A stretch of 64,000 nucleotides of DNA from positions 25,150 through 89,149 of the forward strand of contig PEWV01000025.1 of the NCBI GenBank assembly GCA_002780005.1. Direction: 5' to 3'. Under the pieces are notes generated by a model. That model was given only the letters and a program-made list of their open reading frames with translations, was not told the origin of the DNA and made no database searches. Below, in pieces: positions 11,597-36,560 of the stretch (positions within the stretch are counted from its first letter, which is position 1; every line of letters starts with the position of its first letter). The stretch comes from Candidatus Aquitaenariimonas noxiae (GTDB lineage Bacteria > Omnitrophota > Gorgyraeia > Aquitaenariimonadales > Aquitaenariimonadaceae). Position numbers and translations under genes: made by a program.

Positions 11597-12136
11597 TTAC
11601 GCGTTTCCTATAAATTCTGCCTCTTCGTCATATCTTCTTCTTAATTCCTCTTCGCTCAAAGGTTGCGCAGGAGGCAGCATAATAAATTTCAATATTCCAT
11701 CCTCTTCCCTTTCTTCAACGTAAGGAATCGGCTCGTAAGGCTTATTTAAAACCCTCATTAAAGCGCATTCAACGATTCTTGTTATCGGAATAAATTGGTT
11801 GAGCGTTTTTCCGTCTTCGCTCATTATTCTCGTATCATCTACCGAGATAATCTGAGATTTGCCTTCTAGCGAATTAAACATGCGCTTGGCCCTATTGTCT
11901 TCCCGCACAATAGCTGCAGCCCTTACCTTCCTGCCTGCCCTTAAAGCATCTTCTAAGTATGCATTTAAATGCGCCGAGAGGACATTTCCTTCACCTGCAA
12001 TCACGGTTAAATTATCCAACCCTTCTTTTTGTCTAAGCTCAGTCAATATTGTAAGTAAATTCTGCGCATAATCCCCAAGATTGCCTATTTCCGTATCAAT
12101 GCCTACCAATAGCTCCTCGCCATTATCTTTAGCTTC
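11597..12136 (-). other. conserved C-terminal module, copy 2
   Basis: EELLVGIDTEIGNLGDYAQNLL..NLTVIAGEGNVLSAHLNAY..KVRAAAIVREDNRAKRMFNSL..QIISVDD..FIPITRIVECAL..KPYEPIPYVEEREEDGILKFIM..RRYDEEAEFIGNA*. Confidence 0.75.
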
Positions 12137-24100: not shown

Positions 24101-24508
24101 ACGAAGGATATAGCCGTTCATGCAGCTTATCAGTATCTCGCCTCTGCCGGTCGTATGTTGCAGTTCTGCAACCCAGCCTTGGCCGGCTTCTGCTAAGGCC
24201 GCCCTTACGCCATCCAGGGACAAGTTTTCTTTTGTCCGGCCGTTCCCGTTTTCGATCAATTCGATAAGAAGCTTGGCCTTTACGCTGACAAGCGATTTTT
24301 CATTATCAAAAATCGACGGAGGAATTAAGGCGTGCCTTTTTGTTAACCCCGTTAGAAACTTTGTTATATTTCTTTTTTTAGATGATATTTCTAACGGGGT
24401 GAATATATCCGGATCGGCATAGGCAACAGTCTGGTATATAAGGCAAAATACTAGCGTTAGCGCTATTGCCTTTACCCAGGTATAATTTTTCAAATTAATA
24501 ATGCTCAT
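11597..24508 (-). CDS. giant (4303 aa) polytopic membrane multidomain protein with GNAT, about 20 TM helices, HExxH motifs, SAM methyltransferase, two wHTH-like modules, HD domain, HisKA plus HATPase_c core and the conserved C-terminal module
   Basis: Uninterrupted 12,912-nt ORF with ATG at 24506-24508 and TAA at 11597-11599, 1 nt before the next ATG. Signal peptide VKAIALTLVFCLIYQTVAYA|DPD. Motifs: QEQGIGTKLFE (GNAT), HELGH and HETAH, VVLDLGCGGGEDS (methyltransferase motif I), LFHDIDRFF (HD), FIHDVLQPMTEL (H-box-like), then LRRILSNLLTNIPRYV, IEVEDDAGGI and GHGLATSRQF..GVGTTFKI (GHKL N, G1 and G2 boxes). Many hydrophobic 20-25-aa stretches at aa 600-650, 905-1150, 1520-1760 and 2050-2180. Confidence 0.85.
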   Translation of the reverse strand: MSIINLKNYTWVKAIALTLVFCLIYQTVAYADPDIFTPLEISSKKRNITKFLTGLTKRHALIPPSIFDNEKSLVSVKAKLLIELIENGNGRTKENLSLDGVRAALAEAGQGWVAELQHTTGRGEILISCMNGYILRYYNPSQTTHPYTNELVGQEEGATDVRINRNLCRQIMKMKALPVAEEDAVAVPATADRDEPKEPADNAEAVTAQISRAELATLIKKLTDSNKVTRKIAAHRLKELSEQGAILQTHPALWALRHGASWQDRTIFDYEKEERIRFWRQFKGSDVSIADVKQIVRDYCDLYGIAYPSNLSSLTTKKQLRGLIYHVIVPLRFWKLFGRLPIGDYSTVMDLPVWSSLEDRDMFLDVADWVTSESARAPPGYSRISHREFSSLTQIVEDVLNEPQPVQAQRPVQYALDFGEEDILIAEIGKGAEITLALENDVGRIAELSSLIYPHRAEEAKKAGGHDFSSGYRTIIAMSQGDAEIKPDILVCRVNGKVQGYITGSPVHGRTFELREMAVDPNFQEQGIGTKLFEIFIERLEGRGYTRFSCEIAGINEEMRSIANRFGFREKDENKFILDLEPTLALSDEEDISSIPIAPKPAMVTGFASSLFALGGIAGVAIAFYLNAHWLFAALPFILGVYFSVSAVRLFNLSRGPLNMLAHLSTSAPTRAGPPFDIHPSLQVALERELIESEKQTEDVLIVTGRDKNLAFSIRKGSSITKERIREALESISPQDQRLILSHESIHRLPSILGSDLIAYVWTAVVAPFIWSKAVIVLNRLRDEQAEVAQAPEPSRQDERAEHIWERFLNKFGSNSIIGILQERKDEILDHLTRGRSIWVRGVEVRWNDTRDGFDGGRFSSEHQGEIVAFEVHPPEIVSTPCPNFLGLLRMYFTRYLPASPMNLWLEVGELLAWPSFGVLETVLLLTLTRVAEMQFGILSMSFLWMELSFVAFSAILAVTIVYARMNRTEKIKDAERPYQERRSGLAMSPEFKLREQLIQDRKWVAFWQVMVGFAFVMIYFLLATLLAQPHWAGLFGISAQGVVMAVLIISNLVSAYRNMIQFGNSRIIQERTVRWDRTVPKDVRTNFWSLLGIGQVIAGLLRAGVIAVIVKYISYTVELKSPHMLIERALSLFWIAIPFAVIYAVSKALLPIFVRQPFNPYIRITTPGTSYVVTKLNEGSGLVTYYDFGGGLKVKCLGDSNIRPVKDAKGEWFIFYPDRFNMVVCAGEGFKYKEGPGNLLYPWRHMWRWSNGSCRAELVQYGWQRRGLKAEEVGPGEFKITSEYSTNGNNNWVDRLLVQFEFDPAVREALETKRAEAEIRLKEEGVIYVWGFPVSYDPGEDRFIFEVEDFRKDLADEPVVIYSPEVRKYEVVEINAENRRLGLLDSIAPSGNTEEAGRLQEEASTAGSVKDRKDYLVYYHDAETGQSVAAAVVNVTCVCETWPERIVDIRSVKLPGIGELPIEEVIEFNANKIRVAKDDVSPETDRVLVGFRRAAPETPDAVYYEKDTDTFSQKWQLYRSFFRSRIFALGEIGWLLTNVFGGIIRVLVVLPYNFMGESFTRLAMTSFLAGIASSIVMVISSYVSYRKADEALQGDTSGAEGKLRKAWLWICTIRLASVLFKTILFPQIFIFLFNPATMPLTYTVFLFAASFIDTIEMSFVSMVWYSIFERELRHRFTKYWVGIGFGTFLNQILGVVSTGATLYFAGNFINNYHQQLSGYLQGVANIPPAVATPPTFGTGPLILVGASLVAYVVARLLLPLLSRRFALVRTKQEASGESMKTMLTAREGTGPIQYEDLVFDEKYDGLELQLEKSKRPVRGGEAQGDREKLQGLVYDALDALETETQGTEAEAILKDIIARNLKENRAPPVIRVVSSDNFTVNAARYIDINGNVEILLNKTFVETLLSAPSEYRSATKWLLAERLFHELGHDNSIGLAVEEKDEEKAQVFRDLILYTSCVYNKPLFDEIREYFTKEKPSFPSGNYFDERGLEYLAGLKENASTREDYEHLFYQISLFVSSRYYAEDAFTPSGFVVKAMPTGQRAGSNATNSAGRFFGAFALYGASFMIINLLVGMHIMPALVLFIPLALSISLLARGVSYKTSIAMFVASILLAVGILVIHPVGIAWVTGATTLTILGAMVSFSAGAMLKQLRSGREITILQRALLVILLLVTIFIPQYVRVQQELGAANDRAIRYKIPENADRAKARRTIRRPDWYRMGNEMRSGSRYIDKRDGQGFLYGPKLRTALMAMRELDPEMFSWMEANDVPIYRDGATPPWVAGYTGRMNRGYAYTFAPGGAGVRYNINPVEYSRQAIENAVRAGKVDIPIEEVQELTEEDLDTSSVANIYSVIEHETAHYRELWPYYDNWISEKILDNITMFKLIDIEKRAFNRAMEGKERAGYHVTFLDKFEYVQKAYNIQRMMIIFTTIIKDVFLILLVWFLSNPIRIVRGIRRGILSHCFIDYETYFLMSDVIGDIRSGKWRKTHRKLRDFVEERVSSVHDAIMYRIEWRPDALIVWRDIHMAFAAYAENVARDRQRKGDRELWEDTLRRLSALRPVVHRRDGLTARHLLNRYFDRNLYICGPARIDEQGNIAWPVTNMKPDSDTPHYWDEFERRATVGWLVIETAYANALRREGVRRVYLERRDRSQRNLSQDQIDRLFGGPIRPLKPHSTIAGPGVREEDHDNITNPMLERIFDGEKPGCYISDTEGSETRQSQEDNKLLADLRGLTLNYYKDTPEEAEASEDLKDTNIYLLDPDARSPPEARSYCLWQDVADPVARFVIGHAGRGLGGHFREGEFPAQQNGYLPLALMRQLMVDRAREKVRDNIGRYNYLTRVIALMVRHEARHAREKKLTNGETEEVEQEVAEMMRALHPYLSANQARLLEERFEEFGDKVAQILEHYGTFTAQEIEDSERLLESWRSSAVLTPIELWQLWSYLTLTGREMGEEYAQLHRDIVGLISEAFKNGKKDEQDIVPQIDGVVIGYPWRRSDPSMERAANIIDKKRALLERVAFRSGEVVLDLGCGGGEDSVDIARNNPEVMVYGIDARSENLKRAIAYADASIPGQSNIRFLQRDFRSNPENIPLRGIPLNDSSVDKILLLSDVFVGQSEEFIVSAWQEVLRVLKPGGQIIFFGSVGLVELEDLLGMKVEDYLIYHIVVKAYWGNLYSYIINVESKPPYAAAHRTYPQGSPAEFLKSILLTKDWPTPELQVLATRFKSGGALTISELQQLRFKNQENFGEGVFSYETVRIEIANLEEAGIVNIDRNSSTHKISLRKELKGKMPRYLVNRLCNIRIDAPSLQRSSRLSSQPLRHYDEVSKLQAEEVHALRQMVDKILGQSTLPDSSTTTQPAPVITAESKKGWHGVTTAFSGLASPKGSPAEALCDLFAHRSQIGINPITVRSAQGEWRRENTRTGKPYARVVIANELEALRRLGFLAIKDAPDSEPREPVRGKPNVYYLTNIFFQIQDEELVDRICDIDVEGDYVMQHCTYSESRLAMARDKITEHMRCTAPIDITHRQESDEILGRLRTAIEENRTNLNKMTDPEKAQWLFDWMDANKNCRDELFIRNMPPHMRSIPGIIREIDPSADPAALIAGLFHDIDRFFEGYYVHPSDGFKGGTPQYLHYKSNQHPRLSANFALKWLREAGVSDKVLGDVEILILRHETGITEEVAAENGFQQEAASDMNLLQRADSISQFIPELLINSYILLERDKGKGEGNAMIRYKYARLVPEDKIRADAFVAAGEETFRQSKEGVETLAVFQSIRSELMHTQGTAEGAKAPLGQPAVTVEPTEESVKMVAFIHDVLQPMTELYGWLAYVQDNLRPDADASEKEKFMAVYTLLDSIKVTQQERKRPYYHGRETGDWNAVVEDGKAFADELRQAYGAVKVYFTENPTRLDAITDPSVLEICRESFEGDFSAAALEFAESGLDMLDSYVMENIELGAFLGGFLQARGKEFHDKNIRIYFEKPQEGLIVKASRGGLRRILSNLLTNIPRYVEAGAEHKVTVRLKPSNGQVLIEVEDDAGGIRKPEMLEKVLDPETQTETKAIFVRGSSDKEDTGILSKGHGLATSRQFALSFGGDMDVDTEAGVGTTFKIILPQVEGKAEPGRIQAERFVENIRALAKEAKDNGEELLVGIDTEIGNLGDYAQNLLTILTELRQKEGLDNLTVIAGEGNVLSAHLNAYLEDALRAGRKVRAAAIVREDNRAKRMFNSLEGKSQIISVDDTRIMSEDGKTLNQFIPITRIVECALMRVLNKPYEPIPYVEEREEDGILKFIMLPPAQPLSEEELRRRYDEEAEFIGNA
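12209..13126 (-). other. histidine-kinase core (HisKA-like H-box plus HATPase_c) embedded in giant gene 2 (aa ~3795-4100)
   Basis: H-box-like FIHDVLQPMTELYGWL, then N-box RRILSNLLTNIPRYV, G1 VLIEVEDDAGGI and G2 KGHGLATSRQFALSFGGDMDVDTEAGVGTTFKI. Confidence 0.55.
13499..13831 (-). other. HD-domain-like region in giant gene 2 (aa ~3560-3670), paralogous to the one in giant gene 1
   Basis: NMPPHMRSIPGIIREIDPSADPAALIAGLFHDIDRFFEGYYV..NQHPRLSANFAL..ILRHETG aligns residue for residue with the MSPHMQALPDVV..LHDADRFFDGYYV..IQHPRMAADFAR..IRNHEKG segment of gene 1. Confidence 0.5.
15059..15541 (-). other. class I SAM-dependent methyltransferase domain in giant gene 2 (aa ~2990-3150)
   Basis: GEVVLDLGCGGGEDS (motif I), MVYGIDARSEN (motif II) and LKPGGQIIFF (post-II). 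Checked at 15421-15448. Confidence 0.65.
22799..23191 (-). other. GNAT N-acetyltransferase-like domain in giant gene 2 (aa ~440-570)
   Basis: ELREMAVDPNFQEQGIGTKLFEIFIERLEGRGYTRFSCEIAGINEEMRSIANRFGF matches the acetyl-CoA-binding motif A (Q/R-x-x-G-x-G/A). Checked at 22860-22951. Confidence 0.55.
23993..24335 (-). repeat. N-module DNA repeat, copy A (5' end of giant gene 2), ~88% identical to 34000..34342
   Basis: Direct read-off alignment: cattatctgcctgcagagatttctatttattcttacatctgtggccccctcttcctggcctactaattcatttgtatatgg.. against cattatctgcctgcatagatttctatttattcttacatctatgacgccctcttcctggcccactaattcatttgtatacgg.. It encodes the near-identical segment LIPPSIFD..VKAKLLIEL.ENGNGRT.ENLSLDGV.AALAEAGQGWVAELQ..GEILIS.MNGY.LRYYNPSQTTHPYTNELVGQEEG..DVRINRNLCRQIMKMKALP. 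Confidence 0.8.
24347..24399. repeat. small palindromic (MITE/REP-like) element inserted in-frame in giant gene 2
   Basis: CCCCGTTAGAAA (24347-24358) and TTTCTAACGGGG (24388-24399) form a perfect 12-bp inverted repeat around a 29-bp AT-rich core. The element encodes ~18 extra residues (TPLEISSKKRNITKFLTGLT) that giant gene 3 lacks at the homologous position between the signal-peptide cleavage site and HTLIPPSIFD. Confidence 0.6.
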
Positions 24509-24510
24509 GT

Positions 24511-25059
24511 TTAGGCTTTTCCTATGAATTCCGATTCTTCCATATACCTTCTTTCAAGCTCTTCTCTTTCAAGCGGTTTTGCATCTTCCTGCACACTAAG
24601 TATAAGTTTTAAAATACCGTCTTCCTCAACCTCTTCAACGTATGGAATCGGTTCATGAGGCTTGCTTAGTATTTTCGTCAAGGCGCGCTCTATTATTTTA
24701 GCGATTGGAATATAGTAATTCAGGCTGCCTGTAAAGTTATCTATAACACGACTATCATCAACTGAAACAACTTGAGCTTTATCGACTAATGATTTAAACA
24801 TCCTTTTCTGCCTATTGTCCTCTTTCACTATAACTACTGCCCTAACCGTCTTACTGTCCCTTTGCGCATCTGAAAGATATGTATTTAATTGGGCCGACAG
24901 AATAGTTCCCTCACCGGTAATGACCCTTAAGTTTTCCAATCCCTCTCGGTCTTTAAGATTAACCAATGTCTCAAGCAGGCCTGGCGCATAATCTTTCAGA
25001 TTTCCGATTGTCGTGTCTATGCCCACTACTAATTCTTCGCCTTTATCTTTTGCTTCTTT
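24511..25059 (-). other. conserved C-terminal module, copy 3
   Basis: EELVVGIDTTIGNLKDYAPGLL..NLRVITGEGTILSAQLNTY..TVRAVVIVKEDNRQKRMFKSL..QVVSVDD..YIPIAKIIERAL..KPHEPIPYVEEVEEDGILKLILSVQEDAKPL..RYMEESEFIGKA*. Confidence 0.75.
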
Positions 25060-28000
25060 GGCTAAAGATCTCAAGCTAGCCACTAAGCGCACAGCTTCTT
25101 CTTGAGACGGTTCCATGCTTAGCGTAGGCATTCCTGCTATCATATCTTCTTCTTTTGGCAGAATGACTTGCGCTTCTTGCTCTACCGTCTTTACCTTTCC
25201 AATAATATGATCTACTTTAGCCCGTAATAGTTCTCTCTCCTGGTCGGTTAGCTTGCTTACTTCATCATAGTGCCTTAATGGTTGGTCTGTGAGACGCGCA
25301 GAACGCTGTAGGGACGAGGCTTCGATCCTGATATTGCAGATGGCTTCAACAATTTCCCTGGGCGGAGCCCTTGCTAATTCCGGCCTAAGCGTTACTTTGT
25401 GCACTTTATCTGCCCTGTCGATGCTTACTATACCAGCTTGTTCGAGGTTTGATATTTCAACTCTCACTGTTTCGTAACTGTAGGTCCCTTCGCTAATATT
25501 ACTTGGGTTCTTAAGTCTTAGTTGCTGCAATTCAGCTATTGTCAGGGCCTCGCCATTCTTGAACCTCGTAGCCAGCTCTGTCAGTTCCGGCGTTGGCCAG
25601 TCCTTGGTCAGAAGCAAAGAATGCAAGAATACGGCCGGCGAGCCGTCGGGCGTAAACGGAATATGCTCTATTCGCAAGAAATCTTCTGCAATTCTTTCGA
25701 TCGCAGACATTTTATCTTCTATATTTTCTTGGCACATTAGAGGGTCTTTCGCATCTATGATATCTTGCGGCACCTCTATTAAAAGCGCCCACTCTGAACT
25801 GAATCTGCTTCCATCATATTCACTCGTCCTGACCACTTCAACGCCATCTAATCCATTTAACTCATCTATAAAACGTGTAAAATTAGGGTTCGATTCGTCG
25901 GCTTTAAAAGAAACATATAGTTTATTATTGCTCGGAATGTCCGCGCTGCTGGTCTGCTTGTCACTTTGAAGTTTCCTAAAATACAAATCAATTCTTTCTT
26001 GCGGTGCTTCGCCAGAATATGAATACAGTTCTAAATAAGCTCTAGGGGTCGGGGCATCGGCCCATGTAGTATAAATAAATGGCAAAGCATTAAGCCTTCC
26101 CACAACACCATTAATATCTCGATCCTCTCCCTGGAGAGCGTCGTCTGACCACCCGTTTGTAACCATCAAGGCACTATTAACATCTCCGGGATTAAAAATT
26201 ATACCATATCTATCCTGTTCTTTTCGTTCCGCAAAATTTCTAGGGCCGTCTATATATACTCTTATTCTATCCCTTAACAGGCCCTCCGGCTTGCCTTCAG
26301 GGTAGTTGGCCGGAAAGAAAACGATCTGTAATGCCCTTGCAGCTTGATGCCCAAAATGACGGCAAAGGATTTCATGTAAGATATATTCTCCTTTTAATGG
26401 CCATGGTAGTGTTCCTAGAAAATCACGTGAATAGTAAATTGCTGGGTTTTCTGCATCATCTAACTTATTTTGCCCAAGCGCAAAATCCTGACTGTTCTCA
26501 ATTTGCGAAACGACTTCTCTTAAAGTAGCGTTTGGTAAATCATATAATAACGCTAGAGATAATTTATTATTATCAGGCGCAATAAGATCACCCCAAATTC
26601 TTGCAAACAATCCTGGCGCTTCCTCTTGAGATATAGGAGGTGTGGCGCCTTCCTCGTAATATTCGGGGTTTGACAACCTATCGATCGCGCTTCTCAATGA
26701 CACATCGGAAATCTCAGAATTGTTAATTTCTTCAATTACAAATTCCTTTAAACCATCTTCTAGTGGTCTATATTTTCTTTCTGCAATATCTTGATTCATT
26801 CTCTCAAGAGCTATATGCCCCTGCGCTATGTAACCATCGGGTGTGGTCTTAGGCGCAGCAGGCAATGTCGGGGTCGCGCCGGGCATTCTACCCGGAGTTT
26901 TCTCTTGCCCCAGAGGTGTAGGCGTCACTGTCGCTGCAGTCGCCCCCGATGGCTCTGAAAGCACCTCTAAAATATCATAAAATCTTGTCACAACGTCATC
27001 ATAGTCTGATACGACTGCTTCGCCATAACCCCATGTATATCTGCTCTTGTACGTTTTACGCACTAACATCACATCTCTTATAACGTCAAAGTTCCACCAT
27101 TCTGCGTTTGGATCATCTGATTGCATCAATCTTATATTGTAAGCCGGAGTTCCTCCTCCGCCTACATATGCTGCATAGCTGAATCTTGTGACATTCCGCG
27201 CGCCGCCCTTTGCTGATATTCCCCCCATATAAGGAGCAAGATCCTCACTATCCCTTACCATTTTCATCTTTCTTGTGACAACACAAATACTCTGAATAGG
27301 ATCATAAGGATCATATTCTCCGCTCAAAACGCCTTCAGCCTTAAGCCCATCAAATATCTTTCTATAATGATCCGCTTCTTCATCCCCGTCTAATAATTGA
27401 GCGATACCCCTGGCGTATTTTCCTGAAGAATCCAACGTTGTGGCTTTCGGGCCGCTAGAGTTAAAGCTATCGGTTTCATAGAATAATAATCCAAGAACCC
27501 TATTAAAGGGAATATTATCCTTTTCCTGGCCTGCTAAGAATTTAAATTTGTTCAAAAATCTTGCCATTAGCTCGTTCCTTTGCGCTTCTGTCATGTTGCT
27601 GAATTTAGGATCGGCAAATACTTTTCGTGCAACTGCATTCAATACAGCATCCCGGTCCATGTGCGCCAAATACACGTATCTGAGCGTCCTATAAAGGCGT
27701 TCTTCTGATCTCAATGTAATACGTATTTTTCTGTCCTCAGGTTCTGCTATATCAAACTTGTCTGAATATTTACGCGCCGCAAGATCTAAGAGATTTGCGC
27801 GCAATTTATCGGAAGTCCACCCCATATACTCAGGCCTTGAAAATCTTACGATATCCATGAGTAAGTCAAGATCCTCCTGTTCAATATAAGCCTCTATGTA
27901 AGGATCGACAAATGTTCCGTATATCCTGTTTCTAAAGTCATCGCTTCTCATGCCGATCAATAGCGGTTTTATCCTATTTATTTTAACGCTTATAGCCTGA

Positions 28001-31000
28001 GCCTTCTCTTCTCTCGCCTTCCTTCCGGCTTCAGCATTGGCTAAAGCCTGCCTTAACAACTCTTTCTTTTCCTTACGATCCCGCCATTTGATATATTCTT
28101 CGCGGGACATTAGGCCGGCTTTGATCAAGAGAACAATAGCTGTGCCGACAAGCAGGCCTTCCACAGCCATTCTTCTTGCATAACTCCTAGGGCCTTCTGA
28201 AGGATAATTTCTCTCAAATCTCATTAAGTTAAGGGCTCCTGCGAACGCAAACAGAGCGCCTATATATCCGATTAGAATAACCAAGGCTGGATGAAGGTGC
28301 AGGCTTAAAAACCATATTATTCCTGCAACCGACCCTCCGCCGAATACGAGCCCTGCCCAAAGTTTCCACTTGCCTGGGGCTATAACCCTTCTTTCATAAA
28401 GAATCTTCCTAAGGTCCTGTTTATCAAATTTATCAAACACCCTTATCAGCAATTCTCTTTGCTGGCTGTTATGAGTGGCTAGTATAAAATCCAGGGTCGC
28501 ATTCGTAGCTTCACTCTCACCGCACTCGCGCGCCATATGATACAATTCATGATGGACATTGAGCAGCACGAATATCTGCGTCAATTCTTTGGCTAGATTC
28601 TCTAATTGCCAAGGAGTCATATTTAAATTCATTTCCTGCGCTACTGCGGATAATCTATAGTAAGTATCTATAAATAAATCATAATCTAAGATCATTAAAT
28701 TGTTCTGTCTCTGCGAAACGTGCCCCAATTGCGGAAAACCCCATCCTATGCGTATAGCTATGCAAGGATTATCTGTCCCTGTCTGTCTCTGTTTTTCGAA
28801 TATATCCCTTAGAAGTTGCCGCATAGCCGGGATATTAAAGGCATTTTGTAAATTAATCCTGTATTCATCGGGAATAAATTCGCCTGGCGCTGTATCCTGG
28901 CGCTGATAGACAACAATCTGCCCCCTTCTGTCCGGAACAGCAAAAAGGACCGCTATTTTATCAGTTGTCATTTCATTAATACTTGGGGGATAAGGTTCGA
29001 CTCTTTCAAAAAACGAAAACATGTTAGCGCCTCGACCTGTTTTTGGCAAAACAGCCAGCTTTAATCGGGCGCTAATCCTGGCAAAAGTCCTCGAGACAAC
29101 GCTCCTGACGCTGCCGGCCGCGAACCGATTATCGCGCTCGATCAAACCTCTAAGGGCTTCGGGTTTTAACGCGCCTCTATAAGAGATGCCCAGCCTCTCT
29201 ATATTAGTTAAGACATGGCTGTAAGATGCTGCCGCATCGCCAAAAGCGCCTCTGGCTTCACATTGTAAAGCTGCCGTCAGATCGGCATTGACCTCACCCT
29301 GCAAAACTTCAGCTTGCTCGAGCGCGATTTCCTCAAGCCTAGCCGTCGCCGCTTCCATACGAGACGTAAAACAATCAAAACGCCTTATCAAATAGCCAAG
29401 CCAATTATAAGCATGCTCCACCTGGACCGGATAAATATTATTCGATGCCACCAAGTCACTTATATGCTGGTCTTCCAGCTCTCCCGTTTCAGCAAGGTAT
29501 AATATATCTACTATACCGGCATAGGTAAGATCTATATCCGGACTAAAAACTGTTCCTAGAATTTTCAAGAGTAGAACAGGATTGCCTCTAACAGCGGCTC
29601 TATATTTTATGCCGCTCAAAACTTGGTTTAGAGGGCTCACCAGCATGCCTACGTAGCGCAGCTCGCCTTCTACGCGATCCCTCGATAGGCGCATGTCGAG
29701 ATCTGAAACAACTCCGTTAATAATCACCTCTCTCATGGCCCGCTTGAATATATCTCGATCAGCGATTTCATCGGCGACACTTGCTTGAGATAGCTTTGCC
29801 AAAACATTTTCTAGCACCATAAAAGGATCCGCATCCGCTGTCATAGAGATGTGCCAAATAGTATCAGCAAGCATTTCCGCCCTATCTTTTCTGACAGCAA
29901 TCCTACCTCTACCAACGCCTGCAACAACCTGATTTGCCACGGTTTCAACAATTAAAGCCGCAGTTCCCGCACTTCTCGCGCCCGCATCAGGCGGAATTGT
30001 GGCAAATACGCCTCCGGCTTCCCAAACATATTTATTATAGAAATGGTGTAAGGCCACTGTTAAAACAAAAACCGGTATAATGCTTGGGGCGAGACCCAAA
30101 CTAAACATCAATGCCATCGGCACAACGCTGAATAGGAGCCCTGGCACTAGGAAGAATAAACCTAATCTAAAATCCTCCTGCTTCCTAAACCCAAAAAGAC
30201 TTCCGGTATGTTCAAAAATCCATCTTTTTTCTATCAGGTTATCGCCGATCCTGGGACTGCGCACGTAAACTCTTAAATGGCCTAATAAGAAAGTTGTAAA
30301 TGTCATTACAGCTGCTATTGATCCGGCTATAAACAAGGGCTGATGCAATATAGACAAAAGAAGGAAGGTTGAGCCGTAGTATATAGATAACCTGATAATA
30401 TTTTCTATTACCGGAGCCACGTAAAGCGAATATCCCCTCAATCCCTCTTTGCCCTCTTTCGAAGTAGATGCCGCAGTTCTCAGGAGATCAACCTTAGAGG
30501 CCCATTGCCATATGTCTTTTCCTGTGAATAATTTCACTATCCATCTTATAGAAGCTATAAGCGCAACAGAAGTTGCCGGGGGTAAAGAGTCTTCACCTTC
30601 TTGCGTTCCTCTCTCAACAATAGTTTTAGCATCCGATCTTGCAATAATATCATGCGCTAATACGCATTTTAGATAAGGATCCGGGTTTTCTTTATAAATT
30701 CTTAATGTTCTATCTGCACCTTCTTTTGCATTATCGACAATCCTTATCAACTCCTCTACCGTTAGGTCAACGGTTAACCCTCCTGTAAGCTGCTCAAACA
30801 CTAAGGCACTATCAAATGTTAATTGAAATGGCGGTTGTGCATAGTGGTGCATAAATTGCCGCGCAGACTCTACGAGTCTACGGATATCAACAGGGGATAT
30901 GTGCCGCTCTCTCGCGGCATCTATAAGTTGCGTTACTTCCGGATGTTTCTCCTGATATTTAGTGAGATACGTTTCGGCCCTCTCGGTTTCCGCGCTTAAC

Positions 31001-34000
31001 TCTTGCGTCTCAGGAGACGTCAGGGCTTCCGGACCCCGCCTTCTTGCTATAATATCAATTTCCGGATTATCCTCTATAAATTCACTTAAAAAACTCCTGG
31101 CTGCAGAATCTCCTTTTCTTGAAATTTCTAAAATAATACCGGCCCCGCCTTCAGCATTAAGCAGCCCCCTGGCCGCAGCAGTTCTTACTTCAAGGCTCGG
31201 GTCATTCTGCAATGCCCCCCTCAATACGGTAAGGCCGCGCTCGCCGGCCCTGCTGAGCGCTAATGCCGCGGCTAATTTCGAATCCGTATCCACATTCGTT
31301 CCCAGCACTGCCTGCAAATTCCTTATTCCGGAATTACCTGGTAAACTTGCCAACCCCAAAGCCGCAGCATATTTAGCATCCATATCAGACGGCTTTTCTG
31401 TTCTGCTTGATAATATGCCATTCAAAACATCTGTCCCTCGACTCATCGTACCGAGCGCTATAGCGGCGCAGTACTTAGCAGCCAAATTATCATTATTGCG
31501 TATAACGCCGTTGAATACCCTTACAACATCATCCCCAAAGTGAGTTAACGCTATTGCCGCGCCTTTTTTAGCGCCAAAACTCGGATTTGTGGACAAAATA
31601 CCGGCAAGTTTTCTTTGGGGCTTGCTTTTATCAGTGGCGGCCATTCTCATAAGATGCTCGCGCGTTTCAGCAAAATTTGGGTCTTCAAACAACCCCAATC
31701 TCTGGCCTCGGGCACCTGTCAAAACTTCGTCAATATGCCTGACCGCTGCCAGCCTACTGCGATCTGTTGTTAATACCTCCCTGCGGTGCAAAAGCGTTGA
31801 TTCCACGCGATGGCTTTGCGTTTCCTTTAAAATCCTGATCATTACAGGTTCTATATGAGTCTGGATATAGATTTCGTCTTCATCGTTTAAAGCCAAAGAT
31901 AGATTGTTCATTACTGCTTCAGGCTGTTCTTCTGCAAACGACACGAGAAAATCATCGATAAATGCGCTTACAACCGGGTCTTCTGCCTTATACATGCCAG
32001 ACAAGATTCGCACTGATTCGTCAGGGTAGGCATGGGCGATATTCCTTATAGTATCGATTGCAAATTGTATAACTGGTTGTGGAAAATCGTGCAAAAGACC
32101 CAAATATTGGCGCAAAACTTCACCCATATTCGCACTCAAGGCCTGCGCCAATCTATCTTGAGATTCTAGTTGGGCTTGACGCAAGGGCATCAAATCACTT
32201 CCCTCTAGGGTTTTAACATCTCCTTGCTGCATGCCGCTGACTGTAACAGGTCCGATCGCTATTCTTTCCATCCTAATAACGGGATTCCCAACAGCATCCA
32301 TCATTCCTTTGACCTGACGGTATTTTCCCTCACTTATAAAGAGATCTAGCGTCGTAGTACCGTGACCTCGCTCGATTATCGCAATTCTGGCCGGAGCCGT
32401 ATCATATTCAATTAAGCTTCCTTCCATAATTTCTACTTCAACGTGCACTCCTTCTTCGAGCGCCATCTTCTTGTCATCTGTAACCTCACCGCTGGCAACA
32501 ACTCTATACTGCTTCTCTATATGGCCGGCCGGCAGTATAAGATTACCTATCATGCTGGGATCATCAGTGAGGATCATAACGCCAGGAACATCATAATCCA
32601 GGCGGCCTACCGGATAGAGGCCTGTTGTATCTATATGGTGATCTTCGGAAAGGATGTCATATATAGTCCTTCTGTTAAGCCCTTCGGCGTCTTCGCGAGT
32701 GGATAAAACATCAGCCGGTTTATATAATAGATAATATCTAAATTTGACCGGCACGCGCACAACATTGCCAAACTGATCCAATAACTCTACTTCGCCTTCG
32801 CGAGCCAATCGATATAACTCGTCAAAAAGCACTCGTCTAAAATGGGGGGCGAGCATTATCGCATCTTGAGTTAAGCCTATGTCATGCGTCGCCTGCATGA
32901 GTTCTATATTGTCGGGTCGGGCAAGATATTCGACAGTATCTTTTATAGCATTCCCTTCGTCTGTTATGCCTTTTATTCCATGCGCGCCTATATCATGCGA
33001 CCACAAGCCCATGAGAAATAGGATGCGCTGGTCCTGCAGTTCCGGAGGAGCCCTTAAAAGCGGCCAGTTTATTATGACCCTGCCGGGCATATGCGTTGCC
33101 GCCTCATCAATATCATATCTCAGGCTTAAAGTTATTTTGAAACCTTCGGCCGGGATCCTATCCGCTAGTTCGGCCTGCTGTGTTCTAAACCACCGTTTTA
33201 GAGAAATATCAAGGATCCCTATTTCCGGATATTTTGCGAGTAGTTCTTCCTCTTTCATGCTGCCATTCATAATAGGCTCTATATCATTTTCCTGAACTCC
33301 TGACATGCGCAAAAATCTTTCATCCATAGCCAGATTGATTTCGCCGGACTTAGTAATGCTGATATCGGCAGTAAGCGGCGTTTCACGCGCGATACCTAGC
33401 ATTTCTTCTGCGGCTTCCTCGGAAGGTCTTCCGTCTTCCATGGGTTGAGCGCGGGCAACTACAGCCGGATAAGCCTTTGCTGCATCCTGAGGCACAAGGC
33501 AGGCATTCAAGAAAGCTCTTTCAGCGCCGTACCAAATATACCTGTCTGAAAGATCAATAGCCCTCTGCCTCAGTTCCTCGGTAGAGGCAGCCCCATATTG
33601 CTCAATATTGGCAATAATATGTCTGACAATTGTTTCAAACTCAGCGGTACCGCTTTGACCAGCTACTATAGTATAATTTTGCTCTCCCCTTGCGTATCTT
33701 CTTAAAATTTCTATTCTATCAGCAAGGGTAGCTCCCGTTAATATTCTTTGCAATAACTGTCCAAATGCATCCGCGTCGGCACGATCACGCGCTTCAAACC
33801 CTGCTATTAAACTGCTCCAGCTCTGGTCTTCTTTTATAGCGTAATAATGAGTAGCCCAATATTCGTTTGAGCGCACCCCTCCGCCTGGCTCAACAATCCT
33901 GTCATTTGGCCTGCCGGCCATAGCCATAGGCTCTCGCAGCCCCAACTCTGCCCTAGTAGGAATTGGAGGCAATCCTGGCTCAGGCAGGGCTTTCATTTTC

Positions 34001-34656
34001 ATTATCTGCCTGCATAGATTTCTATTTATTCTTACATCTATGACGCCCTCTTCCTGGCCCACTAATTCATTTGTATACGGATGAGTCGTCTGGCTTGGAT
34101 TGTAATACCGAAGGACATAGCCGTTCATGAAGCTTATGAGTATCTCGCCTTTGCTGGTTGTATATTGCAGCTCCGCGACCCAGCCTTGGCCGGCTTCGGC
34201 TAAAGCCGCCTTTACGCCATCCAGGGACAGGTTCTCTCTTGTCCGGCCATTCCCGTTCTCGACCAATTCGATCAGAAGTTTGGCCTTTACGCCGGCCAGG
34301 TAATTTTCATCGTCAAAAATTGATGGCGGGATCAATGTATGCTTATTTTGATCTAATATATCGGGATTAGCATATAATATATTTTGGAACGTAAATGATA
34401 TTATAAGCAGAAATGAAATAATCTTAATAATGGGCTTTTTGTGGAAATACGAAGGATGGAATAGAAAGAAGCTTTCGATAAACCCCGTTAGAGAACTTCG
34501 TTCTCTAACGGTTTGTGCTGACAGTGGCTTTAAACTGCCGTCAGCTTTAAGCGGTAATGACCGCCGATTAAAATCGGCGGTTTTCTCTAACGGGGTAAAC
34601 CGTTTGAAATGAGATGGTATATCTCTTTTTTGTTCTATATTAAACCCGCAGTTCAA
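24511..34656 (-). CDS. giant (up to 3381 aa) membrane multidomain protein with the conserved N-module, RsuA/RluB-type pseudouridine synthase, HEAT/PBS-lyase-like repeats, TM segments, HExxH motif, lytic-transglycosylase-like region, wHTH module and the conserved C-terminal module; true start codon uncertain
   Basis: Uninterrupted ORF with TAA at 24511-24513. The longest ORF starts at TTG 34654-34656, but the signal-peptide-like segment KIISFLLIISFTFQNILYA|NPD, homologous to the N-terminus of gene 2, begins only ~75 codons later, and no ATG, GTG or TTG lies near it. Motifs: VGRLDYDVPGVMILTDD and EKQYRVV..GKYRQVKGMMDAVGNPV (pseudouridine synthase), HEAT-like AAIALG / AALGLASL / AALALSRAG repeats, HELYH, and ETDSFNSSGPKATTLDSSGKYARGIAQLL (SLT-like). 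Confidence 0.8.
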   Translation of the reverse strand: MNCGFNIEQKRDIPSHFKRFTPLEKTADFNRRSLPLKADGSLKPLSAQTVRERSSLTGFIESFFLFHPSYFHKKPIIKIISFLLIISFTFQNILYANPDILDQNKHTLIPPSIFDDENYLAGVKAKLLIELVENGNGRTRENLSLDGVKAALAEAGQGWVAELQYTTSKGEILISFMNGYVLRYYNPSQTTHPYTNELVGQEEGVIDVRINRNLCRQIMKMKALPEPGLPPIPTRAELGLREPMAMAGRPNDRIVEPGGGVRSNEYWATHYYAIKEDQSWSSLIAGFEARDRADADAFGQLLQRILTGATLADRIEILRRYARGEQNYTIVAGQSGTAEFETIVRHIIANIEQYGAASTEELRQRAIDLSDRYIWYGAERAFLNACLVPQDAAKAYPAVVARAQPMEDGRPSEEAAEEMLGIARETPLTADISITKSGEINLAMDERFLRMSGVQENDIEPIMNGSMKEEELLAKYPEIGILDISLKRWFRTQQAELADRIPAEGFKITLSLRYDIDEAATHMPGRVIINWPLLRAPPELQDQRILFLMGLWSHDIGAHGIKGITDEGNAIKDTVEYLARPDNIELMQATHDIGLTQDAIMLAPHFRRVLFDELYRLAREGEVELLDQFGNVVRVPVKFRYYLLYKPADVLSTREDAEGLNRRTIYDILSEDHHIDTTGLYPVGRLDYDVPGVMILTDDPSMIGNLILPAGHIEKQYRVVASGEVTDDKKMALEEGVHVEVEIMEGSLIEYDTAPARIAIIERGHGTTTLDLFISEGKYRQVKGMMDAVGNPVIRMERIAIGPVTVSGMQQGDVKTLEGSDLMPLRQAQLESQDRLAQALSANMGEVLRQYLGLLHDFPQPVIQFAIDTIRNIAHAYPDESVRILSGMYKAEDPVVSAFIDDFLVSFAEEQPEAVMNNLSLALNDEDEIYIQTHIEPVMIRILKETQSHRVESTLLHRREVLTTDRSRLAAVRHIDEVLTGARGQRLGLFEDPNFAETREHLMRMAATDKSKPQRKLAGILSTNPSFGAKKGAAIALTHFGDDVVRVFNGVIRNNDNLAAKYCAAIALGTMSRGTDVLNGILSSRTEKPSDMDAKYAAALGLASLPGNSGIRNLQAVLGTNVDTDSKLAAALALSRAGERGLTVLRGALQNDPSLEVRTAAARGLLNAEGGAGIILEISRKGDSAARSFLSEFIEDNPEIDIIARRRGPEALTSPETQELSAETERAETYLTKYQEKHPEVTQLIDAARERHISPVDIRRLVESARQFMHHYAQPPFQLTFDSALVFEQLTGGLTVDLTVEELIRIVDNAKEGADRTLRIYKENPDPYLKCVLAHDIIARSDAKTIVERGTQEGEDSLPPATSVALIASIRWIVKLFTGKDIWQWASKVDLLRTAASTSKEGKEGLRGYSLYVAPVIENIIRLSIYYGSTFLLLSILHQPLFIAGSIAAVMTFTTFLLGHLRVYVRSPRIGDNLIEKRWIFEHTGSLFGFRKQEDFRLGLFFLVPGLLFSVVPMALMFSLGLAPSIIPVFVLTVALHHFYNKYVWEAGGVFATIPPDAGARSAGTAALIVETVANQVVAGVGRGRIAVRKDRAEMLADTIWHISMTADADPFMVLENVLAKLSQASVADEIADRDIFKRAMREVIINGVVSDLDMRLSRDRVEGELRYVGMLVSPLNQVLSGIKYRAAVRGNPVLLLKILGTVFSPDIDLTYAGIVDILYLAETGELEDQHISDLVASNNIYPVQVEHAYNWLGYLIRRFDCFTSRMEAATARLEEIALEQAEVLQGEVNADLTAALQCEARGAFGDAAASYSHVLTNIERLGISYRGALKPEALRGLIERDNRFAAGSVRSVVSRTFARISARLKLAVLPKTGRGANMFSFFERVEPYPPSINEMTTDKIAVLFAVPDRRGQIVVYQRQDTAPGEFIPDEYRINLQNAFNIPAMRQLLRDIFEKQRQTGTDNPCIAIRIGWGFPQLGHVSQRQNNLMILDYDLFIDTYYRLSAVAQEMNLNMTPWQLENLAKELTQIFVLLNVHHELYHMARECGESEATNATLDFILATHNSQQRELLIRVFDKFDKQDLRKILYERRVIAPGKWKLWAGLVFGGGSVAGIIWFLSLHLHPALVILIGYIGALFAFAGALNLMRFERNYPSEGPRSYARRMAVEGLLVGTAIVLLIKAGLMSREEYIKWRDRKEKKELLRQALANAEAGRKAREEKAQAISVKINRIKPLLIGMRSDDFRNRIYGTFVDPYIEAYIEQEDLDLLMDIVRFSRPEYMGWTSDKLRANLLDLAARKYSDKFDIAEPEDRKIRITLRSEERLYRTLRYVYLAHMDRDAVLNAVARKVFADPKFSNMTEAQRNELMARFLNKFKFLAGQEKDNIPFNRVLGLLFYETDSFNSSGPKATTLDSSGKYARGIAQLLDGDEEADHYRKIFDGLKAEGVLSGEYDPYDPIQSICVVTRKMKMVRDSEDLAPYMGGISAKGGARNVTRFSYAAYVGGGGTPAYNIRLMQSDDPNAEWWNFDVIRDVMLVRKTYKSRYTWGYGEAVVSDYDDVVTRFYDILEVLSEPSGATAATVTPTPLGQEKTPGRMPGATPTLPAAPKTTPDGYIAQGHIALERMNQDIAERKYRPLEDGLKEFVIEEINNSEISDVSLRSAIDRLSNPEYYEEGATPPISQEEAPGLFARIWGDLIAPDNNKLSLALLYDLPNATLREVVSQIENSQDFALGQNKLDDAENPAIYYSRDFLGTLPWPLKGEYILHEILCRHFGHQAARALQIVFFPANYPEGKPEGLLRDRIRVYIDGPRNFAERKEQDRYGIIFNPGDVNSALMVTNGWSDDALQGEDRDINGVVGRLNALPFIYTTWADAPTPRAYLELYSYSGEAPQERIDLYFRKLQSDKQTSSADIPSNNKLYVSFKADESNPNFTRFIDELNGLDGVEVVRTSEYDGSRFSSEWALLIEVPQDIIDAKDPLMCQENIEDKMSAIERIAEDFLRIEHIPFTPDGSPAVFLHSLLLTKDWPTPELTELATRFKNGEALTIAELQQLRLKNPSNISEGTYSYETVRVEISNLEQAGIVSIDRADKVHKVTLRPELARAPPREIVEAICNIRIEASSLQRSARLTDQPLRHYDEVSKLTDQERELLRAKVDHIIGKVKTVEQEAQVILPKEEDMIAGMPTLSMEPSQEEAVRLVASLRSLAKEAKDKGEELVVGIDTTIGNLKDYAPGLLETLVNLKDREGLENLRVITGEGTILSAQLNTYLSDAQRDSKTVRAVVIVKEDNRQKRMFKSLVDKAQVVSVDDSRVIDNFTGSLNYYIPIAKIIERALTKILSKPHEPIPYVEEVEEDGILKLILSVQEDAKPLEREELERRYMEESEFIGKA
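27127..27519 (-). other. possible family-1 lytic transglycosylase (SLT)-like region in giant gene 3 (aa ~2380-2510)
   Basis: FYETDSFNSSGPKATTLDSSGKYARGIAQLL resembles the E-S-x-F-x-P-x-A-x-S-x-x-G-A-x-G-L-M-Q signature, with AAYVGGGG further on (AYNAG-like). The match is imperfect. Confidence 0.3.
31102..31599 (-). other. HEAT / PBS-lyase-like alpha-helical repeats in giant gene 3 (aa ~1020-1185)
   Basis: Four or five ~30-aa units, each with an A-A-I-A-L-G / A-A-L-G-L-A-S / A-A-L-A-L-S-R-A-G / V-R-T-A-A-A-R-G-L core. Confidence 0.45.
32227..32754 (-). other. pseudouridine synthase (RsuA/RluB/RluE family) catalytic domain in giant gene 3 (aa ~635-810)
   Basis: YYLLYKPADVLST..LYPVGRLDYDVPGVMILTDD (motif II with catalytic Asp), HIEKQYRVV, and EGKYRQVKGMMDAVGNPVIRMERIAIG (motif III, K/R-x-H-Q-I-R-like). 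Verified at 32581-32610. Confidence 0.65.
34000..34342 (-). repeat. N-module DNA repeat, copy B (5' end of giant gene 3)
   Basis: See copy A. The two copies are offset by about 10.0 kb in direct orientation. Confidence 0.8.
34483..34595. repeat. nested palindromic element sharing the CCCCGTTAGAGAA arms, in the 5' region of giant gene 3
   Basis: CCCCGTTAGAGAA at 34483-34495 and TTCTCTAACGGGG at 34583-34595 form an outer inverted repeat. The local hairpin CCGTTAGAGAAC-ttc-GTTCTCTAACGG lies at 34485-34511, and a perfect 20-bp palindrome CCGCCGATTAAAATCGGCGG at 34561-34580. The left arm can pair either locally or long-range, which are mutually exclusive RNA structures. Confidence 0.6.
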
Positions 34657-34755
34657 AATTTTACCCCCCGCAGTTTTTAACTTTTTATTGTATTATCATA
34701 TAACTTGATATGTTATACTATAAATATAATCTTACTTTTTATATGATTTACCTAA

Positions 34756-34784
34756 AGTATAACATAAATGAGAGGGTTTGTAAA
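34756..34784 (-). promoter_or_regulatory. putative sigma70-type promoter for the giant-gene operon
   Basis: On the minus strand: TTTACA (34784-34779), a 17-nt spacer, then TATACT (34761-34756), inside the AT-rich 194-bp gap between the recJ stop and giant gene 3. This is sequence resemblance only. Confidence 0.3.
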
Positions 34785-34850
34785 GGCAAATAACAAGCTT
34801 TTTTAATGGTTAACTACACACTTATTGTGGTTATGCTTATTATGCAGGTT

Positions 34851-36560
34851 TTATGAGGAACTACTATTTCTGATATCTTGAAGGGTAAGTTGAATGGAAC
34901 TCATGCCTCTCCAATTATTCATCTCAGGCGAATAGACTATATCTACCCTGCCGGAGTTTATTTTGTGAAGGCAACTACCTGCCATCCTGAAGCCAACAGC
35001 CTCGCAGGTAAGTTTATTATCTGTGACCCAAATTTTGAAATGGTCTTTTCCCATGCGCGTAGGAGACCTCTTCAGACCAAGATTGCGCGAGCTTAAAATA
35101 GGCTTAGGATTCCATGGCCCAAACGGAGAAAGGCCTTCTATCTCGCAGATCAGCTTACTGGAAATGATGTTCAAAGGCACTTCCATATCAATTTCTATCC
35201 TTGGCTTAACAACTTCTGCGGAGAGCAATTTGCCGGCGACTTCGTTTAGTTTGCGTTTAAAAGGTCCTATTTCTTTCTTTTCTATTGTCAGGCCGCAAGC
35301 GCCTTCATGGCCGCCAAAATTAACCAAATATTCTTTGCACTCGCCTACTGCCTCAACTAAATTAAAATGGGCAATACTTCTGCCCGAGCCTCTGCCCATA
35401 CCTTTAGACACAGCTATTAAAACAGTTGGCTTATAGAACTTCTCGCTGATTCTGGATGCAACGATCCCTATGACGCCCTTGTGCCAATCGTCGCTTGATA
35501 AGACTATGACATCCTCGCCTACCAGGTCTATTTCGCTTTCTACCTTACTTAACGCTTCCTGCAACATCTTACTTTCCAAGTTTTGGCGGCGGCGGTTCTC
35601 CTTATCCAAAATCTGAGCAAGCTCTTTGGCTTCATTGGCATCTTTAGTAAGAAGAAGCTTTACCGACATCTCGGGAGAGCCTAACCTGCCTGACGCGTTG
35701 ATCCGCGGTCCAAGAATATAGCCGATATGCCCGCTTAAGATCTGCTTTCCGGATAACCCGGATACATCCATAAGCGCCTTCAGGCCTGCCTTATCTGTCT
35801 TGTTCAATTCGACCAAGCCATAACGGGTCAATATTCTATTTTCGCCTATTTGCGGCACGACATCGGCGACATTACCAAGCGCCACAAAATCAAGATATTC
35901 AGCCATTCGTATGGGCTTATCTTCAACTAAACATTCTGCCAACTTATACGCCAAGCCGACACCTGCTAAATGTTTAAAAGGATACGCGCAATCAGACTGC
36001 AGAGGGTTTATTATTGCCAATGCCTTCGGTAATTTGCCGACGATCTCATGGTGATCTGTAATTATAATATCTATGCCTAGCTTATTCGCATACTTAACTT
36101 CCTCATTAGCCCCGACACCACAATCCACAGTTATTATGAGAGAGACCTTTTTCTTTTTAGCTGCCATCACGGCCGGTTTATTTACGCCATACCCTTCTTC
36201 CAGCCTGTTGGGAATATGATACGAAACATCTAATCCCAATTTTGCGAATACAGAGACAAGCAATGCCACGCTGCATATGCCGTCTACGTCATAATCGCCG
36301 TATATCATTACTCTTTCTTTTTGTGCTATCGCTTGTTTTATGCGGAAAACCGCTTTATCCATATCCTTTAAGAGGCGCGGATTATGCAGGGAGGAAAGGC
36401 TGCACCCTAAAAACATGCGGGCGTCGGTCAGGCTGGTTACATTTCTATTTATAAGTATCTGGGCTGTTACAGGGGAGATCCCGAATTCTTTCGTGAAAAG
36501 ATCTCTAAGGTTTTTATCCTCTTCACTCTCTCTTCTTAATATCCATAGCTTCTCGTTCAT
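34851..36560 (-). CDS. recJ: single-stranded-DNA-specific exonuclease RecJ
   Basis: 569 aa with DHH and DHHA1 motifs (IYGDYDVDGICS, ITDHHE, GGHEGACG), typical RecJ length and order. Confidence 0.85.
   Translation of the reverse strand: MNEKLWILRRESEEDKNLRDLFTKEFGISPVTAQILINRNVTSLTDARMFLGCSLSSLHNPRLLKDMDKAVFRIKQAIAQKERVMIYGDYDVDGICSVALLVSVFAKLGLDVSYHIPNRLEEGYGVNKPAVMAAKKKKVSLIITVDCGVGANEEVKYANKLGIDIIITDHHEIVGKLPKALAIINPLQSDCAYPFKHLAGVGLAYKLAECLVEDKPIRMAEYLDFVALGNVADVVPQIGENRILTRYGLVELNKTDKAGLKALMDVSGLSGKQILSGHIGYILGPRINASGRLGSPEMSVKLLLTKDANEAKELAQILDKENRRRQNLESKMLQEALSKVESEIDLVGEDVIVLSSDDWHKGVIGIVASRISEKFYKPTVLIAVSKGMGRGSGRSIAHFNLVEAVGECKEYLVNFGGHEGACGLTIEKKEIGPFKRKLNEVAGKLLSAEVVKPRIEIDMEVPLNIISSKLICEIEGLSPFGPWNPKPILSSRNLGLKRSPTRMGKDHFKIWVTDNKLTCEAVGFRMAGSCLHKINSGRVDIVYSPEMNNWRGMSSIQLTLQDIRNSSSS

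Follow-up and report, generated by a model that had tools for sequence, protein, structure and literature searches.

The 64,000-nucleotide stretch of Candidatus Aquitaenariimonas noxiae (Omnitrophota) analysed here, hereafter the window, carries four tandem giant genes. Gene 3 is the first in the series, and its leader holds a short palindromic DNA segment with the characters of a miniature inverted-repeat transposable element (MITE). The original prediction had suggested that this 5' region might act as an RNA switch. We instead favor, with a probability of roughly 0.7, an account in which a MITE-like element was inserted into the leader of gene 3, translation starts at an upstream TTG, and the element is translated and then cleaved off with the leader.

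Gene 3 and its start codon

The longest open reading frame (ORF) of gene 3 begins with the TTG that the original prediction had named, as our ORF and start scan confirmed, and the public annotation of the gene (PIU41965.1) uses the identical start. Genes 2, 1, and 0 begin differently, each at an ATG 2–6 nt past the preceding stop, again as had been predicted. In the frame of gene 3, the next ATG, GTG, or TTG after codon 1 is the TTG at 34335 (codon 108), which is already beyond the predicted signal peptidase cleavage site and has no Shine–Dalgarno-like sequence upstream. The TTG at codon 1 lies behind a GGGGGG run (Table 1), and GGAGG- or GGGGGG-type sites occur at similar spacing in other genes of the window. 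As the only canonical start that also has a Shine–Dalgarno-like run, this TTG is most likely where gene 3 begins. Without the palindromic element, the region before the hydrophobic core of the signal peptide would still measure ~33 residues, suggesting that use of the TTG is independent of the insertion.

The position of the signal peptide follows from the alignment with gene 2, whose N-terminal domain is 66% identical to that of gene 3. The alignment places the signal peptide at about codons 72–96, in agreement with the earlier estimate of codon ~75. The gene 3 segment KK-PIIKIISFLLIISFTF-QNILYA-NPD aligns with the gene 2 signal peptide and would provide a basic n-region, a hydrophobic core, and an AxA-like site. 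From this motif and the paralog alignment, cleavage is predicted between LYA and NPD, after A96 (34369). It had been proposed that a correctable sequencing error might hide a canonical start near 34430. The sequence from 34860 to 34300 is base-for-base identical in four separate assemblies, leaving no room for such an error.

Table 1. Features of gene 3, its leader, and the short family member in gene 2 (window coordinates).
Feature	Position	Strand	Remarks
Giant gene 3	24511–34656	−	Longest ORF, 3381 aa; TTG start 34656–34654
TTG	34654–34656	−	No other ATG, GTG, or TTG precedes the signal peptide in frame; proposed as the true start
Shine–Dalgarno-like run GGGGGG	34664–34669	−	7 nt 5' of the TTG
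Sigma-70-like promoter match, TTTACA-17-TATACT with TG extension	34756–34784	−	In the recJ–gene 3 spacer; consensus match only
Sec-type signal peptide KKPIIKIISFLLIISFTFQNILYA (predicted)	34369–34440	−	Codons 73–96, K73 = 34440; homologous to that of gene 2
MITE-like palindromic element	34479–34599	−	121 nt including both TTTA; codons 20–60 of gene 3
Left terminal inverted repeat ACCCCGTTAGAGAA	34583–34596	−	From inverted-repeat search
Right terminal inverted repeat TTCTCTAACGGGGT	34482–34495	−	From inverted-repeat search
Hairpin H1, interrupted palindrome ACCGCCGATT/AATCGGCGGT	34560–34581	−	Perfect 10+10 bp arms, 2-nt spacer; covaries in the family
Hairpin H2	34517–34545	−	Partly decayed here (2 mismatches, 1 G.T); strong covariation across the family
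Hairpin H3	34485–34511	−	Internal extra terminal-repeat copy paired over 12 bp with the right terminal repeat; alternative to the outer stem
Short family member, 53 bp, CCCCGTTAGAAA...TTTCTAACGGGG (24399–24347)	24343–24403	−	TTCA/TTAA flanks; inside paralog gene 2

The palindromic element in the leader

The element is bounded by two copies of the target site TTTA (34599–34596 and 34482–34479), and its net insertion amounts to 117 nt, or 39 codons. Its terminal inverted repeats measure 13–14 bp (CCCCGTTAGAGAA); in the window copy the 14-bp repeats are perfect, with 87 bp between them. The motif CCGTTAGAGAA is present in two exact sense copies (34583–34593 and 34501–34511) and one antisense copy (34485–34495), so that the antisense copy of the original prediction stands while its count of three sense copies is reduced to two. 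With at most one mismatch allowed, the motif gave 7 matches where 1.27 were expected, a number reached by none of 100 shuffles. A perfect 20-bp palindrome had also been reported; its arms are indeed perfect, but a 2-nt spacer interrupts them (H1 in Table 1). Translated in the frame of gene 3, the element gives the 41-residue stretch FTPLEKAADFNRRSLPLKADGGLKPPSAQTVRERSSLTGFT.

The antisense arm (34482–34495) can pair with its neighbor in a local stem of 12 bp (34485–34511) or with the distal copy in a stem of 14 bp (34583–34596), and the two pairings exclude each other, just as had been foreseen. Folded in isolation, the window copy has a predicted energy of −54.0 kcal/mol with the outer stem and −47.9 kcal/mol with the local hairpin, and the leader region as a whole folds far better than shuffled sequence (z = −6.28).

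One consequence of such an insertion might be a disabled N-terminus, with gene 3 expressed from the TTG at 34335 without a signal peptide, or decaying as a pseudogene. In favor of this reading, this TTG is the next canonical in-frame start, and hairpin H2 of the element is partly decayed. Nonetheless, the signal peptide and its AxA-like site are intact and conserved with gene 2, the 107 codons upstream of the TTG are free of stops, and the 3381-aa ORF is intact in all four assemblies. Together with the missing Shine–Dalgarno-like sequence before 34335, these observations make a disabled N-terminus improbable.

A dispersed family with common ends

When the first 400 aa of gene 3 were compared with protein collections, only six unrelated proteins matched, every one of them through the 41-residue translation of the element. 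The matched proteins include a glutamyl-tRNA synthetase, an RluD-like pseudouridine synthase, and glutamate-kinase-like (ProB-like), transglutaminase-like, and primase-like proteins. At the DNA level these copies are 83–88% identical to the window copy, their flanks are unrelated, and they share sharp boundaries, with TTTA followed by CCCCGTTAGAGAAA on the left and GTTCTCTAACGGGG followed by TTTA on the right. The copy in the glutamyl-tRNA synthetase (L001:11120–11240, protein P0002) adds ~48 residues, at about 361–408, relative to the solved Thermotoga enzyme (PDB 2o5r). The enzyme is apparently essential, and the extra block falls in its C-terminal anticodon-binding region, between residues that are adjacent in 2o5r. 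The sharp ends, unrelated flanks, and extra block in the synthetase indicate that the segment is a discrete inserted element.

The 18-mer TTTACCCCGTTAGAGAAA from the left end was found as an exact match in at least 120 stretches of a species-representative genome collection. Most numerous were stretches labeled Omnitrophota (47, among them one from the closed Ca. Velamenicoccus archaeovorus genome), followed by Nitrospirota-type (17), Deltaproteobacteria-type (13), Planctomycetota (11), a single Doudnabacteria metagenome-assembled genome (MAG; 11), Elusimicrobia (7), and other Patescibacteria (3), with one each for Bacteroidota, Actinomycetota, Auribacterota, and Methanosarcinales and 7 unclassified. 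These phylum labels come from MAGs and may be wrong, yet several MAGs hold at least 7–11 loci each, on long contigs. Assembly artefacts are an unlikely source of the other copies because closed genomes and independently made assemblies also hold copies in frame. Members with the common ends fall into size classes of 40, 55, 68, 118, 121, and 154 nt, the family as a whole ranges from 40 to 225 nt, and its members carry no transposase ORF. Plasmid, phage, and IMG/VR collections yielded no copy of the element.

Several very long Omnitrophota ORFs, open for >2400 codons in 8-kb loci, also contain in-frame copies (L035:2762–2882, L052:2883–3003, and L070). The L070 locus has copies at 4631–4685 and at about 6470–6615, one sense and one antisense, within a single ORF. 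At about 4700–4830 of the same locus, a tandem array has expanded inside one element, its units resembling CTGTCTGCGTGCGACGCACAGGC(A/T)GGC and being translated as VCVRRTGRP repeats, which suggests that elements may seed repeat expansion in giant genes.

With respect to the archaeal label, a contig assigned to a Methanosarcinales archaeon MAG carries a 40-nt hairpin form (L022:350–390), and Ca. Velamenicoccus archaeovorus (L122), an Omnitrophota predator of methanogens, has a decayed long copy in its closed genome. This co-occurrence could reflect mis-binning or predator–prey transfer.

Evidence for transposition

Small members are found nested within larger ones, where they are bounded by identical 4-mers: TCAA, CTGA, CTAA, TTAG twice, and TTAA. 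Because these duplicated 4-mers interrupt a known consensus, they point to transposition with a 4-bp target-site duplication. A DNA pattern scan that imposed TTTA on the left side only recovered copies whose right flank was nearly always TTTA as well. The short member in gene 2 is a 57-nt in-frame insertion of 19 codons (FTPLEISSKKRNITKFLTGL) that is absent from gene 3. It lies seven residues past the signal-peptide cleavage site of gene 2, and comparison of the paralogs identifies gene 3 as the empty site. We also considered a 110-nt indel between L001 and L002 as a presence/absence polymorphism of the element and rejected it, the sequence being unrelated.

Perfect 14-bp inverted repeats 87 bp apart might also serve as sites of a DNA invertase, with the flip of the 87-bp segment turning gene 3 on and off through phase variation; in the opposite orientation the frame of gene 3 does meet a stop codon. 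All four assemblies show a single orientation, however, and a search for recombinases or transposases beside copies, confined to ORFs that end pairs enclose in the loci and with most of the window's ORFs not screened, found none. As target-site duplications and nested insertions indicate transposition and not inversion, we find phase variation hardly credible.

Conservation of structure across the family

We aligned 42 copies of 113–123 nt (alignment A2). The terminal repeats are nearly invariant, with 98.6% of cells paired. In H1 and H2 together, 111 cells were changed on both sides of the stem, compared with 39.5 in shuffles (none of 500 as high), and the signal collapsed in controls with slid partners. 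Mismatches in the stems include 81 G.T and 66 A.C, with no strand asymmetry, and the residues encoded by the hairpin regions vary freely. Given this lack of asymmetry and the free change of residues, the conserved object is a palindrome at the DNA level, or a structure used on either strand. Two narrower readings were rejected on these data: a strand-specific RNA function, by the mismatch counts, and conservation of the peptide, by the covariation of the hairpins at the nucleotide level with encoded residues free to change. Competing stems like those in the window were found in essentially every long copy. They result from the architecture of the element, in which a further, internal copy accompanies the two terminal repeats, and are a trait of the family rather than a regulatory design of gene 3.

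These results bear directly on the cis-regulatory RNA (riboswitch, attenuator, or thermometer) that would govern how the giant-gene operon is translated by toggling between the two stems. In its favor, the two exclusive stems are similar in predicted energy, the leader folds exceptionally well, and structure prediction pairs the Shine–Dalgarno run with a CU-rich segment at 34457–34448. However, that pairing was as low in 22 of 100 shuffles and is also predicted when the element is removed. The best hit in an Rfam scan of 34200–35000 had an E-value of 0.09 and 25 bits, against a gathering threshold of 60 bits, and lay on the opposite strand. The same structure recurs in coding and intergenic DNA, in both orientations and beside unrelated genes, and its stems carry no wobble asymmetry between strands. 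Its most conserved parts are the terminal repeats at both ends and not an internal pocket. While a structured 5' region with alternative, exclusive stems does resemble known riboswitches and attenuators, the family differs from them in having no conserved gene association, Rfam match, or strand specificity and in having copies inside ORFs. A switch specific to gene 3, as first proposed, is thus very improbable.

The Rfam scan also showed weak resemblances to the rimP leader and to psRNA14. On the plus strand, a terminator scan found that H3 (34485–34511) and H1 (34560–34581) are each followed by a T-rich run in the manner of intrinsic terminators, and family copies in antisense orientation could serve as terminators.

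Coding compatibility and the leader-peptide niche

Among the 42 aligned copies, net length is divisible by three in 36, and each orientation offers one frame that tends to be free of stops (26/42 and 30/42), the other four frames being almost never open. Of about 95 copies recovered by DNA pattern alone, about 31 fall inside ORFs that reach 150 aa or more, or at their margins, for the most part in the FTPLEK frame and in three cases in giant ORFs; the remainder are intergenic or in short ORFs.

The clearest pattern concerns type IV pilin-like genes, in which at least 13 copies sit exactly at GGN-TTT-ACN (G-F-T) codons (L009, L012, L013, L018, L067, L069, L080, L086, L089 twice, L090, L092 twice, L098, and L107). 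These genes retain the original short leader (e.g., MNKKG-FT), which is followed by the element and thereby gains about 20–50 residues. At the right junction SLTG is followed by FTLIELLVV, rebuilding the prepilin cleavage site. In DNA terms, CTAACGGGG followed by TTTAC recreates G/FTLIE, so that the peptide encoded by the element would be cut away by the peptidase of the host. On the left side, the junction F-T-P-L-E (TTTACCCCGTTAGAG) differs by 1–2 bases from the pilin consensus coding sequence. By a strict count based on exact right ends, 12 of 28 pilin-like N-termini in the loci have the element at the G-F-T position, and in 7 of 13 pilin loci all in-frame ATG, GTG, and TTG codons lie upstream of it.

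A profile search with the element peptide among 1.84 billion representative proteins (E up to 1e-3) returned 101 proteins, one of them gene 3. In 21–22 of these, which are pilin-like, the element is fused directly before FTLIE. A further 10, gene 3 included, have a signal peptide or membrane segment no more than 35 residues after the element, indicating that the architecture of gene 3 recurs elsewhere. Gene 3 itself lacks a class III prepilin signal peptide, which would have G at −1, F at +1, and E at +5 and then about 15 hydrophobic residues: at its right junction SLTG is followed by FIESFFLFHPSYF, with E at +3 and without an uninterrupted hydrophobic run. Many other hosts of the element do show this pattern.

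With a little better than even confidence, we propose that these repeats form an apparently undescribed, coding-compatible MITE family under many phylum labels. Net lengths in multiples of three, a single frame without stops in each orientation, and insertion at TTTA(C) would allow its members to persist in the cleaved leaders of secreted proteins, most clearly at the G/F-T codons of pilins, where the left junction F-T-P-L-E would mimic the pilin motif.

This pattern also bears on the possibility that the element of gene 3 lies in an untranslated leader and that translation begins before the hydrophobic core at a non-canonical codon (ATT at 34431, 34428, or 34422, ATC at 34479, or CTG at 34410). 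Several such in-frame codons are present, homology with gene 2 requires only about 23 residues before the cleavage site, and about two thirds of family copies lie outside long ORFs. None of the in-frame ATT, ATC, or CTG codons closer to the signal peptide has a purine-rich Shine–Dalgarno-like sequence, however, and the TTG does. Moreover, the frame is open for 72 codons upstream despite AT-rich DNA, many pilin and signal-peptide genes have their only start upstream of the element, and starts of this type are very rare in bacteria. We therefore consider a non-canonical start unlikely. Of the three options in the original prediction, the N-terminal extension from the TTG is best supported; a non-canonical start lacks a ribosome-binding signal of the Shine–Dalgarno type and is not required, and riboswitch-type control is not supported.

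A model for the gene 3 leader

We propose that a non-autonomous MITE-like element landed in a TTTA within the 5' coding part of gene 3, downstream of the start codon but ahead of the Sec signal peptide. The frame stays open because the net insertion is 117 nt and because the element landed in one of the family's two stop-free frames. Judging from the sequence, translation most likely starts at TTG 34656 behind the GGGGGG run, and the ribosome would then read the element as codons 20–60 before it reaches the codons of the signal peptide. Despite the extension, the protein would be directed to Sec by its hydrophobic core, and signal peptidase would cut after LYA, probably removing the whole leader of roughly 96 residues together with the element peptide. 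As in other co-transcribed bacterial MITEs, the hairpins could affect mRNA stability or ribosome progress as a generic side effect. We rate the feature in the window itself as an ordinary consequence of repeat insertion.

Several observations weigh against this model and must temper it. The 72 residues that would precede the Sec hydrophobic core form an unusually long region, and export competence is assumed. Metagenomes contained no match to an empty-site allele of gene 3, in which the flanks would be joined through a single TTTA, and no ortholog of the gene 3 N-terminal domain was found in a word search of 5.8 billion proteins or in metagenome contigs. The 64-kb window, the part of the source genome covered here, holds 2 members of the family. 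In about 0.94 Mb of loci, a search for inverted end pairs 0.4–6 kb apart enclosing a large ORF gave no autonomous transposon that shares these ends, the ORFs between such pairs being ordinary genes between separate small elements. Finally, the proteins used for comparison are gene-caller predictions, some with possible internal starts.

Surroundings of gene 3

A direct repeat (AACTGCGGG, two copies 22 nt apart, 34645–34684) flanks the Shine–Dalgarno run and the TTG (AAAAACTGCGGGGGGTAAAATTTTGAACTGCGGGTTT). Upstream of the giant genes lie recJ, tgt, queA, queH, and ruvB. Pfam matches on the giant proteins include PseudoU_synth_2 in gene 3 (24511–34656) and acetyltransferase, methyltransferase, and HATPase_c domains in gene 2 (11597–24508); these proteins look like multi-enzyme giants that are secreted or anchored.

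Comparison with known repeat families

Small size, absence of a transposase ORF, terminal inverted repeats, and target-site duplication characterize MITEs, and the family shows all four. Its closest counterpart in lifestyle may be the Rickettsia palindromic elements (RPEs), which reportedly measure about 100–150 bp and lie in-frame in protein-coding genes, including essential ones. RPEs are translated as extra peptide segments and do not destroy the host protein. The present family likewise consists of short palindromic repeats that lie in-frame inside genes and leave the host protein colinear. No homology to RPEs was detected, the element peptides having no NCBIfam or Pfam match at E up to 10 with the RPE domain models included. 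The family also differs from RPEs in its clear terminal inverted repeats and 4-bp target duplications, in its occurrence under many phylum labels (RPEs are known from one genus), and in favoring N-terminal leaders that are cleaved off, with copies concentrated at the G-F-T codons of pilins and ahead of signal peptides.

Correia/NEMIS elements of Neisseria and ERIC elements of enterobacteria are small and non-autonomous, with terminal inverted repeats and short target duplications. Both are co-transcribed with their neighbors, and their long RNA hairpins can affect mRNA processing and expression. They are essentially intergenic and lineage-restricted and are not known to have open reading frames or to be constrained to lengths in multiples of three; Correia elements duplicate TA. 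The present family shares the inverted-repeat ends, target duplications, and hairpins with these elements but differs in its coding compatibility and 4-bp duplications.

REP/BIME palindromes, which are mobilized by RAYT (IS200/IS605-like) transposases, are extragenic and species-specific and are not known to produce a target-site duplication. Like them, the family consists of short palindromes that are abundant, keep their hairpins conserved, and encode no transposase; it differs by the 4-bp duplications at its nested insertions. Duplications of 4 bp resembling TTAA, with CCC ends, are made by DDE transposons such as the IS1380/piggyBac-like elements and the IS5 group with YTAR targets. By analogy, the TTAA-like duplications and CCCC ends of the family make IS1380/piggyBac or IS5-type enzymes candidate mobilizers.

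Full-text literature searches, which included papers on Omnitrophota giant genes, returned no mention of the family, and it is apparently undescribed. What sets it apart from RPEs and Correia/ERIC elements is the apparent spread across phyla, the 4-bp TTAA-like duplications combined with CCCC-initiated ends, the covarying internal hairpins, and the concentration in cleaved leaders.

Implications

For gene 3, a supposed regulatory RNA is removed and the annotated TTG start is supported. Beyond this gene, gene callers and predictors of domains and topology will misread the N-termini of repeat-bearing proteins in Omnitrophota, the Candidate Phyla Radiation, Planctomycetota, and Nitrospirota, and giant proteins and pilins alike are exposed to this error. 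Ends of the same few dozen nucleotides recur under at least eight phylum labels, the internal hairpins of the family are kept by compensatory change, and its length and frames fit translation. Its marked concentration in cleaved leader peptides suggests that selfish DNA may follow a 'safe-harbour' strategy within genes, which would extend the case known from the RPEs of Rickettsia.

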